Positions 52,203-57,078 of a stretch of DNA of 64,000 nt are shown in pieces. Origin of the DNA: Methanobacteriota archaeon (GTDB lineage Archaea; JAADCQ01; Methanopyri; Methanopyrales; Methanopyraceae); contig JAMOPO010000015.1 of NCBI GenBank assembly GCA_027064425.1, positions 128,001-192,000 on the forward strand. The letters are read 5' to 3'. The notes below the pieces were generated by a model. The model was not told the origin of the DNA. It saw only the letters and a list, made by a program, of their open reading frames with translations, and searched no databases. Position 1 is the first letter of the stretch. Each line of letters begins with the position of its first letter. A program made the translations under genes and the position numbers.

Positions 52203-52229
52203 ATATCGTTACGAACCTCGTAACGATTC
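52203..52229. repeat. 27-bp palindromic element, copy 3 (downstream of tRNA-Gly)
   Basis: ATATCGTTA-CGAACCTCG-TAACGATTC. Confidence 0.8.
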
Positions 52230-52337: not shown

Positions 52338-52997
52338 CTAAATATCTTTTTCGGCCTCCCGCAGCGCCGACTCGATCGCCGACTCCGCCTCCCCCACCAC
52401 CTCGAACCCGTGCCCCGGGAAGATCGACTCCACACCCACCGCCAGCAACCGCTCCAACGACTCGCACAGCCGCTCCCGATCCCCGCCCGGCAGATCCCAG
52501 CGACCCGGCCCGAACCCGAACACCGTATCCCCCGTGAACGCCACGTCCTCCACCAAAAAGCAGCAACTCCCCGGCGAGTGCCCCGGCGTGTGCAGCACCC
52601 GCACCTCCACCTCCCCCACCTCGATCACGTCCCCGTCCCGGAACGTGAACGACGGATCGAACGCCGGCATCGACTCCCCGAACAGGTACGCCGCCGACCT
52701 CCGATCATCCCCCTCCCGCAGCACCTCCGCCTCCGCCGGATGAATGCCCACCCTCCATCCCCGCTCCAGCGCCCGCGGTCCCGCCGCCGCGTGATCGTAG
52801 TGCGAGTGCGTCAGCACAACCCCCACGATCTCAACGTCACCGACCTCCCGAACCACCTCGCCCGTCGCCCCCACGTCCACCAGCAGCCCCTCCTCACCCG
52901 ACCGCAGCAGGTAGCAGTTGCAGTCCGGTGCCGGCGTCACTCCCTTACCGCCCACCCTGTACACCGAGAACTCCTCGCACGAGTACACCTCCAGCAA
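52338..52997 (-). CDS. MBL-fold hydrolase (glyoxalase II-like)
   Basis: THSHYDH, HTPGHSPG, FTGD, PGHG. Confidence 0.9.
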   Translation of the reverse strand: MLEVYSCEEFSVYRVGGKGVTPAPDCNCYLLRSGEEGLLVDVGATGEVVREVGDVEIVGVVLTHSHYDHAAAGPRALERGWRVGIHPAEAEVLREGDDRRSAAYLFGESMPAFDPSFTFRDGDVIEVGEVEVRVLHTPGHSPGSCCFLVEDVAFTGDTVFGFGPGRWDLPGGDRERLCESLERLLAVGVESIFPGHGFEVVGEAESAIESALREAEKDI

Positions 52998-53001
52998 GGG
53001 G

Positions 53002-53865
53002 GTGCCCCCCATCCGACCCGAGAGGCTCGCCCACCGCGCCGTCAAAAAAGCCCTCGAGCGCACCGTCTTCGACCCCGACGCCTGGATCCACGTGACCACC
53101 GTCTCCAACGACACCATCCACATTCACGTCCTCACCAACCAGCGCCGCAACGTCGAGGGCAAGGGCGGCCGCAACCGCCAGTACCTCGAGGGCTACGTCG
53201 AGGGCTACCTCGCCGCCCACGACCACCACGCCCGCGTCCACGTCAGCGTGATCAACGCCGGCCTCCGCGACGAGACCGAGGAGTTCCGCTACCTCCCCCT
53301 CGAGCGCGCCCTCAAGGAGGGCGTCCTCGACGAGAACCACCCCATCTGCCGAACCTGCCGCGAGCTCGACATCCCCTACGTCGTCCTCGGCGCCCGCGAG
53401 ATCGTCGGCCCCAACCCCGTCCTCCCCGAGCTCGTCCAGGAGACCGAGGGAGAGCGCGCCGTCGACCTCTTCACCGGCACCGGAGCCGCCGCACTCGCCG
53501 CCGCCCGCGCCGGTTACGACGAGATCTACGCCATCGACGCCAAGATTCACCCCGACGTGCGCGAGCGCCTCGAGAGCGAGGGCATCGAGGTAATCGAGAC
53601 CGACTTCCGCGACCTCGACCTCCGCGAGCTCGAGCCCATCGACCTCCTCACCGCCGACCCACCCTACGCCTCCGCCCTCGAGCTCCTCAAGAAGCTGGAG
53701 GAGGAGCGGCCCCGCGTCCGCACCGCCATCATCGCCCACGGCTTCACCGGCTGGGTCCGAGCCGTCCGCGAGATCCGCGGCTACCTCCTCGAGCTGTTCC
53801 GGGAGGTGGAGCCCGTCTCCAGGCACGGCCACGAGCTCAGCGTCTGCCGCGAGCTAAAGCGCTGA
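53002..53865 (+). CDS. SAM-dependent methyltransferase with amino-MTase DPPY motif
   Basis: VDLFTGTG and ADPPY; start uncertain. Confidence 0.8.
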   Translation: MPPIRPERLAHRAVKKALERTVFDPDAWIHVTTVSNDTIHIHVLTNQRRNVEGKGGRNRQYLEGYVEGYLAAHDHHARVHVSVINAGLRDETEEFRYLPLERALKEGVLDENHPICRTCRELDIPYVVLGAREIVGPNPVLPELVQETEGERAVDLFTGTGAAALAAARAGYDEIYAIDAKIHPDVRERLESEGIEVIETDFRDLDLRELEPIDLLTADPPYASALELLKKLEEERPRVRTAIIAHGFTGWVRAVREIRGYLLELFREVEPVSRHGHELSVCRELKR

Positions 53866-55522
53866 CCGATACCACCCGATCGACCACCCGACCACCCGGC
53901 AGGCAGCGCTCACGCACGAACCGCTCGAACGAGCCCCCTCCTCCCCGGGACCGGTGCCGCAGGAACGCGCCCGCCCACAGCCCGCGCGCCCGCTTCCGCA
54001 GCGAGTACTCGAAGGGAACCCGGGTCAGGAACCGCTCCGCGCGCTCGCCACGGAGCTCCATACTGAAAACGAGCCGATTCTCACCTGATGACGTCTCGTA
54101 AGTCCCGCCTCTGGAGACCACCGCACGTGCGCCGACTACTTTGTTCAGCACCTCATTAACTCCCTCCAGGATGCAAGGAGGGTCCTCGAACGGTGATGCT
54201 TGGGCAATGCCCACCCTCACGTCCCCCCTGTCAGTCACCGACACCCATCCATCGGCACCGAAGAACCCGGCCAGGAACTCCAACGCGACCCTATCAGGGC
54301 CGCGGCGAATCCACTCGGCCACCTCAGTCTTACCCGCCTTCCGGCCCTCCGGCACCCCGAGCTCCCGCAGCAGCGCCGCGAACCCCTCCGAGTGCACGGC
54401 TACCTCCACCGCATCCCTATCCTCGTACTCGTACCTCACCGGCGAGAGGCCCAACGTCCCGAGGTCTCGCTCCAGCCAACGCAGTCCCGCCGGCTCCCCG
54501 TAGAACTTGACCACGTCCCGCTCCAAGTGACCGTCGCCCACCGCGTAGCCCACGATCCTCGCCAGCGCCGGGATCGCCGGATCCTCCCACCGCAGCGGCA
54601 GCAGATCCAGATCCCGCAGGAACTCGAGGGCACCGTCCGAGGCGTCAACGGCCGACAGCAACACACCCCGCCGATCCACCGCTGGGGGAACCTCCACCGG
54701 GTACAGCACGACCCGATCCCCCGGCTCGAGGTCACCCAACCGGCGCTCGCCCTCCGGGGTGAGAACGCGCTGACCCTCCGGGCCCGCGAGCTCGAACCCC
54801 AGCCTGGTGCCCACGACCACGCCGGCGCCCCGGTCTCCGGCGAGACTGGCCGCCCCGTTCCACCGAGCCGGCCACCGCGCCGACAGCCTCGCCTCCCGCC
54901 GAGCGAGCTCTTCCAGAACCAACCGGGCCCGCTCCTCCCGGGGATTGTAGCGGAACCGGACCCGCGAGAGGAACCGGAGCAGGTCGCGCCGACCGCGCAC
55001 CAGCACCTCCACCCGAGCGTACCGGTAGCGCCCGGAGGAGACCGGAGACAGCCCCACCACCTCCGCGCTCACGCCCAGCGAGTCGAGCAGCTTGAGGACG
55101 TCAAGCGCCAGGAAGATCAGGCCACCCTCCCGATCCGCCCGCGCCCGAAGCTCCAGCCGCACCGGCCGAGGACGACCTCCGTCGAACCCGAGCACCTCCC
55201 CGCGCACGCTGTAGAGCCCGGCCAGCAGCTCACGCGCCGCGCTCGGATCCTCGAACACCCAGCCCGGGATCCGACCCGTGTCCGGGGACGCACCGGCCAC
55301 GGCCAGCGCGCTCAGGAGGCGAGCGTCCCGTGACTCCACGCTCGTCCACCGCTTGCCCCGCCGCACTGATGGGCTCACGCCGAACCGGCGCAGGTCCTCG
55401 AGGAGCTTCTGCGCCCCCTCGTTGGGCACCGAGAGGCGCACGCGCGACCGGTCGCCCTCACGGAGCGTTCCCCTGCCCAGCAGCACTCCGAGTAGCCTGG
55501 CGAGGACGAGCTCCAACTCCAT
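53837..55522 (-). CDS. Free-standing intein-derived protein with two LAGLIDADG (DOD) domain pairs and Hint remnants
   Basis: LARLLGVLLGRG, ELLAGLYSVRG, LARIVGYAVGDG, EFLAGFFGADG; Hint-like GTRLGFELAGPEGQRVLTPEG..RLGDLEPGDRV; SD GAGGTG + ATG. Confidence 0.8.
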   Translation of the reverse strand: MELELVLARLLGVLLGRGTLREGDRSRVRLSVPNEGAQKLLEDLRRFGVSPSVRRGKRWTSVESRDARLLSALAVAGASPDTGRIPGWVFEDPSAARELLAGLYSVRGEVLGFDGGRPRPVRLELRARADREGGLIFLALDVLKLLDSLGVSAEVVGLSPVSSGRYRYARVEVLVRGRRDLLRFLSRVRFRYNPREERARLVLEELARREARLSARWPARWNGAASLAGDRGAGVVVGTRLGFELAGPEGQRVLTPEGERRLGDLEPGDRVVLYPVEVPPAVDRRGVLLSAVDASDGALEFLRDLDLLPLRWEDPAIPALARIVGYAVGDGHLERDVVKFYGEPAGLRWLERDLGTLGLSPVRYEYEDRDAVEVAVHSEGFAALLRELGVPEGRKAGKTEVAEWIRRGPDRVALEFLAGFFGADGWVSVTDRGDVRVGIAQASPFEDPPCILEGVNEVLNKVVGARAVVSRGGTYETSSGENRLVFSMELRGERAERFLTRVPFEYSLRKRARGLWAGAFLRHRSRGGGGSFERFVRERCLPGGRVVDRVVSVSALARGRR

Positions 55523-55608
55523 CGCGAGCACCTCTCGAGACCGCGTTCGGCCGGGCGTAAGCGGAGAACGATGCGGACTGACCGCCCCCTCCGGGCTGCG
55601 ATCCGGAA

Positions 55609-55635
55609 ACAACGTTTTGAGTCTCATAACGATTT
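55609..55635. repeat. 27-bp palindromic element, copy 4 (downstream of tRNA-Phe)
   Basis: ACAACGTTT-TGAGTCTCA-TAACGATTT. Confidence 0.7.
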
Positions 55636-55644
55636 GCGGCTTTT

Positions 55645-55753
55645 TGGTGCCGCGGCCGGGATTTGAACCCGGGCCCACCGGATGGCCGAGGCCCCGCGGA
55701 CGACCCGCGGGGCCTCTTCAGTCCGGCGCTCTCCCAGGCTGAGCTGCCGCGGC
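55645..55753 (-). tRNA. tRNA-Phe(GAA) with 32-nt 37/38 intron (55684-55715), genomic C8, encoded CCA
   Basis: GCCGCGG-C-A-GCTC...CCGGA-CT-GAA-G[intron]A-TCCGG; BHB helix CTGA/TCGG with AGA and CCA bulges. Confidence 0.96.
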
Positions 55754-57051: not shown

Positions 57052-57078
57052 GAATTGTTACGAGTTCCTTAACGATCG
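57052..57078. repeat. 27-bp palindromic element, copy 5 (downstream of tRNA-Pro)
   Basis: GAATTGTTA-CGAGTTCCT-TAACGATCG. Confidence 0.8.

Follow-up and report, generated by a model that had tools for sequence, protein, structure and literature searches.

The yeast HO and WHO genes descend from an intein of the VMA1/VDE lineage, stand free and cannot splice; they keep a LAGLIDADG endonuclease core with part of the Hint fold, have gained an extra DNA-binding module (a C-terminal zinc finger) and adjoin a highly conserved gene, and their members are diverse, partly decayed and variable within the endonuclease (PMC7282806; bioRxiv 10.64898/2026.08.13.744650, the latter in its accessible part). 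Here we describe ORF561, an archaeal gene that shares these features, its added DNA-binding module by prediction. It lies in a 64,000-nucleotide stretch (hereafter the window: assembly GCA_027064425.1, contig JAMOPO010000015.1, positions 128,001–192,000) of a heat-loving methanogen of the Methanopyraceae (genome G000), which was compared with five congeners (G001–G005), and we show that its 561-residue product (P0001) descends from an RtcB-type intein and now stands free, without exteins. ORF561 differs from HO and WHO in that its nearest relatives are RtcB inteins, that an N-terminal, duplicated and dead LAGLIDADG double domain replaces the zinc finger, that its Hint domain is far more truncated and that no duplicated fragment of a neighbouring gene was found at the locus in six genomes. 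By analogy it would work like HO and WHO in outline, yet it is not a member of that family: it comes from a different intein lineage, and neither a zinc finger nor target-gene fragments were found.

RtcB inteins with a LAGLIDADG domain (NCBIfam NF038162; in this genus L017 and L015) share the endonuclease fold and are collinear with residues 234–556 of ORF561, which differs from them in lacking exteins, Cys1 with block A, and blocks F and G, in having Gln for the block-B His, in its 233 additional N-terminal residues and in apparently evolving much faster. WhiA (DUF199), a transcription factor built on a degenerate LAGLIDADG double domain, resembles the ORF561 N-terminal module in lacking the catalytic acids and recurs among its structural matches; WhiA, however, joins a single degenerate double domain to a C-terminal helix–turn–helix (HTH), whereas ORF561 fuses a dead module to an intact-looking one with no HTH detected. 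Free-standing homing endonuclease genes of phages, such as SegB in the T4 tRNA region (PMC13096335, accessible in part), are likewise stand-alone, lie by tRNA genes and are patchily present, but SegB is a GIY-YIG rather than a LAGLIDADG enzyme and resides in a phage rather than a cellular chromosome. In the literature searched, yeast HO/WHO are the only described case of an intein that became a free-standing gene, and this protein is not mentioned; neither an archaeal transition of this kind nor a four-helix fusion of dead and live double domains was found there.

The C-terminal part of the protein carries the evidence of descent. Aligned by eye with the RtcB intein of congener G002, residues 234–556 are collinear with it from about 55–75 residues past Cys1 to the strand before block F, and identity to the congeners' RtcB inteins is 42–45%. 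Among NCBIfam models, the one for intein-containing RtcB matches best (RtcB_rel_intein; residues 237–525 on profile positions 153–465 of 961, E = 1.8e-46), with a total score far below the model cut-off because ORF561 contains no RtcB part; Pfam returns LAGLIDADG_3 (PF14528, E = 3.5e-9) and, below threshold, Hint_2 (E = 0.072). On the N-terminal side of the endonuclease, GPEGQRVLTPEG...GDLEPGDRVV aligns with GSEDHPVLTPEG...GEIEEGDLVV of the congener intein, which places a Gln at the block-B His (GPEGQ opposite GSEDH in G002); the same stretch reads GPEGQ in P0002, P0003 and G003, and GPGDL, GPEGL or GPADM in P0004/G005, P0005 and G002. On the C-terminal side, GGRVVDRVVSVS aligns with GGFVIEEVVEVKG, the intein strand immediately before block F. 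Since these Hint remnants flank the endonuclease core on both sides, the direction of change was from intein to free-standing gene.

Beyond these remnants both ends of the intein are missing. The first 55–75 or so intein residues, Cys1 and block A included, are absent: the protein starts MELELVLARLLG, and what lies upstream is a tRNA gene, not an extein. It ends ...VVDRVVSVSALARGRR at a stop codon where the intein runs on as VEPEYDRFYDIGV...HNFIADGVVVHN/C, and because it stops at the strand before block F, blocks F and G, the terminal His-Asn and the +1 Cys are all missing. With a tRNA gene on one side and a convergent methyltransferase gene on the other, no in-frame host protein surrounds it. 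Judged on these features, ORF561 is not an intein: Cys1 with block A, the block-B His, the F/G end and embedding in a host protein were each looked for and none is present. A split or trans-acting intein partner was considered and rejected, as RtcB of G000 (L021, G000:C15:313745-315118) is uninterrupted and intein-free and the genome's only matches are ORF561 and a paralog. The LAGLIDADG intein is thus present or absent at the same gene within the genus: G002 RtcB carries it in full (L017), and an intein-like match in G003 (L015), cut by a contig end, groups with that of G002 in the tree.

The endonuclease core between the remnants looks alive. Both LAGLIDADG motifs retain their Asp (GYAVGDG, D330; GFFGADG, D424) and the block-D Lys is present (K395), all three being kept in the five orthologs and the paralogs, so that residues 305–525 qualify by motif and fold as a double-motif LAGLIDADG endonuclease.

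Residues 1–205 are an internal duplicate of this core, and ORF561 thus has four LAGLIDADG helices. BLASTP of residues 1–236 against residues 290–561 yields a collinear alignment (30% identity over 204 residues, E = 1e-4), and hhalign joins the two halves over 184 columns with 98.8% probability (E = 9.3e-17). In this alignment LLGRG (R17) and YSVRG (R107) stand opposite GDG (D330) and ADG (D424); both catalytic Asp positions of the N-terminal half are therefore Arg, and the block-D Lys is lost as well. The two Arg are invariant in five aligned N-terminal halves, one of them from a paralog only 31% identical, and the half is strongly basic (net charge +11, isoelectric point 11) where the live core is mildly acidic. 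Searched alone, it reaches Pfam LAGLIDADG_3 at E = 0.05, below the cut-off, and nothing meaningful in a PDB sequence search (best E = 0.21). A Pfam scan of ORF561 found no HTH family and, at E values up to 10, no zinc-finger family; the 41-residue tail holds one Cys and one His.

Structure prediction extends this picture. In a full-length AlphaFold2 model the predicted local distance difference test score (pLDDT) exceeds 90 over most of residues 235–555 and is low in parts of the N-terminal half and in the linker at 188–231; the N-terminal half modelled from 12 aligned rows, C-terminal homologues among them, reaches a pLDDT of 87.8 and a predicted template-modelling score of 0.83. The best Foldseek matches of the latter model are PI-PfuI (E = 3.9e-8, TM-score 0.60), PI-SceI, the TliVMA intein, E-DreI, I-Tsp061I, I-DmoI and WhiA (3hyi and 8dy9, E = 2.1e-7), and bI3 maturase is also present among the Foldseek matches. 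Superposition of the C-terminal core with VIA-align gives a Z-score of 18.8 against the TliVMA intein endonuclease domain (7qsu; root-mean-square deviation 2.5, 186 residues) and about 16 against I-DmoI. PI-PfuI, PI-PkoII and PhoVMA align over model residues 224–561 beginning at their own residues 64–77, which fits a Hint domain without its first strands; the VMA intein structures match ORF561 as a general fold only. Both halves of ORF561 are thus predicted to adopt the LAGLIDADG double-domain fold, alpha-beta-beta-alpha-beta-beta-alpha.

Sequence searches and a tree agree on the intein lineage. A word-indexed search (8000 scored candidates) gave 15 proteins at E <= 1e-3, namely the query, four orthologs (88, 86, 83 and 72% identical; 554–620 residues) and RtcB family proteins, which make up all ten of the non-orthologous matches. 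At the same threshold, 184 matches came from scanning 1.84 billion representatives, and RtcB plus intein domains were found in six of the nine top matches scanned with Pfam. Among the 150 matches listed, the N-terminal module is covered as the best stretch only in two orthologous rows, a paralog representative (P0019) matches in two stretches and the rest match from about residue 205–240 onward; Atlas clusters returned have representatives of 247–431 residues, most with LAGLIDADG_3. Among those 150 matches and the Atlas clusters, no protein beyond the ORF561 family has four LAGLIDADG helices, as dead and live double domains, in one chain. A quick IQ-TREE analysis of 34 rows over residues 234–526 unites the five orthologs with four paralog rows in a single clade (SH-aLRT 97), which is sister to RtcB inteins, the genus's own included, inside a 16-row set (97). 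Path lengths between clades are about 0.45 substitutions per site for the free-standing genes and about 0.06 for the RtcB intein (G002, G003), which suggests a several-fold higher rate of evolution in the former, the clades compared being the same.

An earlier sequence-only reading of the window had proposed much of this architecture: a 561-residue open reading frame (ORF) with its own Shine–Dalgarno sequence next to tRNA-Phe, a degenerate LAGLIDADG pair with Arg at the Asp positions, a block-B-like stretch without the TxxH His, an intact pair (VGYAVGDG, LAGFFGADG), a Hint C-terminal strand (VVDRVVSVS), no block A or His-Asn end, and an origin by duplication from an intein. These proposals are borne out by the alignments, models and searches above and by the gene context below.

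The paralog has the same make-up in reduced form. G000 holds three matches in all: ORF561 itself and two stretches of one 481-residue open frame on contig C5 (L003:730-2175, minus strand; G000:C5:15874-17319), which comprises dead and live modules and lacks both Hint remnants. The first 136 codons of this frame contain no ATG, GTG or TTG, and the earliest start would give 345 residues beginning inside the dead module; the G002 copy is frameshifted, and an intact 477-residue version exists as P0019. The paralog lies upstream of tRNA-Val and was detected only in G000 and G002, G003 and G005 being 89% and 87% complete. The adjacent tRNA-Val(GAC) shows an intron polymorphism, with a 37-nt intron in G000 (L003:568-678) and none in G002 (L019:1338-1412), the exons being 97.5–100% identical.

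ORF561 itself keeps its place while its state varies. The order methyltransferase, ORF561, tRNA-Phe, aconitase X is conserved and the position is fixed in four of the five congeners. The ortholog is intact in G003 (88% identity) and G005 (83%). In G002 it has lost 2 bp directly behind GDGHLEPDVV, which leaves frames of 367 and 194 residues; between this broken ortholog and the methyltransferase gene, where G000 has no DNA, a DUF1678 gene is inserted (L023:6478-7236, minus strand; 252 residues, Pfam E = 2.9e-96). In G001 only a remnant survives, residues 84–106 and 488–559 in different frames. G004, the most distant congener (aconitase X 74% identical), has the same flanks, keeping the order tRNA-Pro, aconitase X, tRNA-Phe ... 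methyltransferase and the tRNA-Phe intron, and holds in the slot an unrelated 504-residue ORF (L032:4929-6443, plus strand) with a signal-peptide-like N-terminus and no Pfam match. The sole ORF561 match in G004 (C58, residues 100–135) lies antisense within a 494-residue ORF, glutamine-amidotransferase/CobQ-like by eye, and was judged to be chance. The aconitase-X homologue of G001 (L029, G001:C1:252816-253883) has one in-frame TGA, which may be a selenocysteine codon, an error or the sign of a broken gene; G000 has a tRNA-Sec call. A search of metagenome contigs for orthologous DNA gave one locus, on a contig equal in length to G003:C46 and with identical match coordinates.

Selection has acted on the intact copies. 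The ratio of nonsynonymous to synonymous divergence (dN/dS, NG86) is 0.45, 0.37 and 0.40 among G000, G003 and G005 (bootstrap 95% intervals 0.32–0.63, 0.28–0.48 and 0.29–0.53); with the two G002 pieces, where dS is about 0.9, it is 0.25. For the same pairs the neighbours give 0.28–0.47 (methyltransferase), 0.10–0.24 (beta-lactamase-fold gene) and 0.06–0.28 (aconitase X). Values within the methyltransferase range mean that purifying selection on ORF561 is about as strong as on its weakest-constrained neighbour. Within the protein, dN is lower in the dead N-terminal module (0.061–0.079) than in the live core (0.107–0.157). Of the picture of a decaying relic, against which the sequence-only reading had set itself, one half holds, orthologs being frameshifted, reduced to a remnant or replaced, and the other does not, dN/dS of 0.25–0.45 not being neutral.

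Divergence is concentrated in residues 421–500. P0002 and P0003 are 96–98% identical outside this segment and 62% identical inside it, where P0003 is closest to P0004 (77%); pN is 0.18–0.29 and pS 0.41–0.54 there (pS elsewhere 0.04–0.29), with pN/pS of about 0.5. Positive selection was considered and rejected: since pN and pS are both raised and their ratio is only about 0.5, we read the segment as an exchange of old alleles, to which the G003–G005 dS also points, at 0.229 in the ORF561 ortholog against 0.048 and 0.084 in two flanking genes. The second LAGLIDADG subdomain carries half of the DNA-contacting sheet in solved enzymes.

The gene is read on the minus strand (Table 1). Its start is plausibly the ATG at 55522, or a GTG three codons upstream, since the frame from the stop to the first GTG (53837-55678, 613 residues) overruns the tRNA gene and was rejected for that reason. 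The AGGTG at 55533-55529 is complementary to ...GGATCACCTCC, the 3' terminus of the 16S-like sequence on contig C57. The upstream tRNA-Phe(GAA) gene was missed by ARAGORN at default settings and required its intron option (gaa i(39,32)); Rfam RF00005 scores it at 44.9 bits. The 3' end of the convergent methyltransferase-like gene overlaps that of ORF561; further neighbours code for a metallo-beta-lactamase-fold protein and for aconitase X, the latter gene being followed by tRNA-Pro. The beta-lactamase-fold frame (52338-53123, minus strand) and the methyltransferase-like frame (52918-53865, plus strand) share about 200 nt at their 5' ends; the methyltransferase probably begins further in than its listed frame, whose sequence is conserved without a break in the congeners only from about residue 26. 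A search of sequencing runs gave five DNA rows from two studies (shares 0.30–0.50), with no RNA run among them.

Table 1. Features of ORF561 and its upstream flank (positions in the window; residues are those of the 561-residue protein)
Feature	Position	Strand	Basis
ORF561 (P0001)	53837..55522	-	ORF listing, stop codon included; orthologs 88/86/83/72% identical
C-terminal Hint remnant, residues 540–556	53855..53905	-	pre-block-F strand; AlphaFold2 strand 545–555 at pLDDT >90
LAGLIDADG double domain, catalytically intact-looking, residues 305–525	53948..54610	-	D330, K395, D424; Pfam E 3.5e-9
Mosaic, hypervariable cassette, residues 421–500	54023..54262	-	second subdomain of the live core
N-terminal Hint remnant, residues 234–290	54653..54823	-	block-B-region beta strands, Gln for the TxxH His; AlphaFold2 pLDDT 82–96
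Helix and low-confidence linker, residues 206–233	54824..54907	-	AlphaFold2 pLDDT <50 at residues 188–231, full-length model
N-terminal pseudo-endonuclease module, residues 1–205	54908..55522	-	R17/R107 for Asp, no block-D Lys
Shine–Dalgarno-like GAGAGGTG	55529..55536	-	6 nt before the ATG; kept in G003
19-nt palindrome CGTTTTGAGTCTCATAACG	55613..55631		generic tRNA-gene 3'-flank element, between ORF561 and tRNA-Phe
tRNA-Phe(GAA), 32-nt intron	55648..55753	-	directly upstream of ORF561, same strand

The palindrome between ORF561 and tRNA-Phe belongs to the tRNA gene, not to ORF561. Copies of CGTTAYGA-NNN-TCRTAACG at 52207-52225, 55613-55631 and 57056-57074 stand 9–14 nt past tRNA-Gly, tRNA-Phe and tRNA-Pro; genome-wide, with up to two mismatches, 40 of 105 matches fall 8–26 nt past a tRNA 3' end (none for a reversed-pattern control), and 39 of 64 ARAGORN tRNA calls have the palindrome, some of these calls, with kilobase 'introns', being doubtful. 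It is kept after tRNA-Phe in four genomes, and CGTTA(N)9TAACG is a published tRNA-downstream motif of Methanopyrus kandleri in the accessible part of PMC5217627. The sequence-only reading had placed a copy between ORF and tRNA, correctly, and had suggested binding assays on the palindrome; as a specific site for this protein we rejected it, the element following tRNA genes genome-wide. Within the 60 nt upstream of G000 tRNA genes a clear (A)AACG-TTWWWA box occurs about 30–45 nt upstream, and the AACGTT core of this tRNA promoter box resembles the arms of the gene-end palindrome.

The history of the gene includes a single escape from the intein context, which founded a family of at most two members per genome: ORF561 downstream of tRNA-Phe and the shorter paralog upstream of tRNA-Val. 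The escaped copy shed all that splicing needs, the exteins and block A as well as the block-B His and blocks F and G, and retained the endonuclease core with its two metal-binding Asp and block-D Lys; tandem duplication of the core yielded the N-terminal module, in which both Asp are now Arg and the Lys is gone. The intact core presumably binds a specific long DNA site and probably cuts it still. The role of long-site nuclease proposed in the sequence-only reading is possible; its alternatives there, regulator and RNA-processing factor, receive no direct support. The basic dead module would give the protein a further DNA-binding arm, with a longer or altered site as the result, filling the role that the Hint/DRR region has in PI-SceI and the zinc finger in HO/WHO. 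Such a gene would be dispensable, selfish or loosely useful, under moderate purifying selection in some lineages and frameshifted, deleted or absent in others, and its specificity-region cassette would be swapped between alleles. On the features of the sequence, ORF561 is probably an extein-less gene of the homing-endonuclease type that resembles HO/WHO and is dispensable, its dead module serving as a supplementary DNA-binding part.

Several observations weigh against that reading. DNA of about 70% G+C is rich in long open frames, so that an open frame alone is weak evidence, and spurious long ORFs in other frames (563 and 377 residues, for example) overlap ORF561. The interval from the palindrome to the start codon contains no AT-rich TATA-like box like those upstream of G000 tRNA genes, and a promoter for ORF561 is for this reason not evident from its sequence. 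No duplicated tRNA or target-gene fragment, such as WHO elements or integrase-borne islands would leave, was found at the flanks: a search of the loci of the six genomes gave no partial tRNA-Phe or tRNA-Val copies, matches of 21–27 nt being T-arms of other tRNAs, and an integrated element with a tRNA att duplication was rejected on this ground. The predicted fold of the N-terminal half is not fully independent of sequence homology, given the C-terminal homologues in its alignment. Finally, synteny is kept across two clades (dS about 0.9) and dN/dS, in the methyltransferase range, lies above that of the two other flanking genes (0.06–0.28); both would fit a useful gene inherited vertically as well as a selfish one.

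The last point is the starting place for the rival that we rate highest, unlikely as it is: a domesticated host factor, namely a WhiA- or HO-like sequence-specific DNA-binding protein or regulator needed by the G000/G003/G005 clade, whose dead and live modules would together read a long operator. Bootstrap intervals that exclude 1 for the intact-copy pairs, a syntenic position fixed in four of five congeners, a dN of the dead module below that of the live core and the retention of R17 and R107 even in the paralog all speak for such a role, but the live core keeps all three catalytic residues, unlike WhiA, no HTH or zinc finger was found with Pfam, the cassette is swapped between alleles and the paralog is decaying too. 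The frameshift in G002, the remnant in G001 and the absence from the G004 slot also tell against it, and the label 'domesticated' given in the sequence-only reading is not supported. A bolder relative of the favoured reading, drawn by analogy, would make ORF561 the archaeal counterpart of WHO/HO: a homing element, still active, that has moved out of its host as an intein, cuts element-free alleles near tRNA-Phe (or, for the paralog, tRNA-Val) and spreads by repair-mediated copying, the dead module roughly doubling the site length and the exchange at residues 421–500 reflecting a specificity arms race. We hold this to be somewhat less likely again than domestication.

Lower still, by a little, stands the proposal that ORF561 is an inert relic, its G000 frame open only through the rarity of stop codons in such G+C-rich DNA and its protein not made or functionless. 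The overlapping spurious ORFs, the want of a clear promoter and the decay in G001, G002 and the paralog are what this would predict; a dN/dS plainly under 1 up to a dS of about 0.9, catalytic and structural motifs kept in five orthologs and an SD-like AGGTG conserved before the start are not. In archaea EndA and RtcB excise bulge–helix–bulge introns, with no maturase known to take part, which tells against the idea that the protein acts on RNA, as a maturase-like or tRNA-intron-linked factor. Both family members adjoin tRNA genes in which an intron is present or variable (ORF561 following the intron-bearing tRNA-Phe, the paralog preceding the tRNA-Val that has its intron in G000 and not in G002), the N-terminal half is strongly basic, and LAGLIDADG maturases exist, bI3 among the structural matches. 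G004, however, has the tRNA-Phe intron without the gene, there are two cases only, and mobile DNA often lands at tRNA genes; we consider an RNA-directed role highly improbable.

Together with the intein-bearing and intein-free RtcB alleles of the same genus, ORF561 forms a compact system for studying the archaeal homing cycle. Should its protein be active, it would be of interest for nuclease engineering as a natural hyperthermophilic meganuclease whose second recognition module is already built in.

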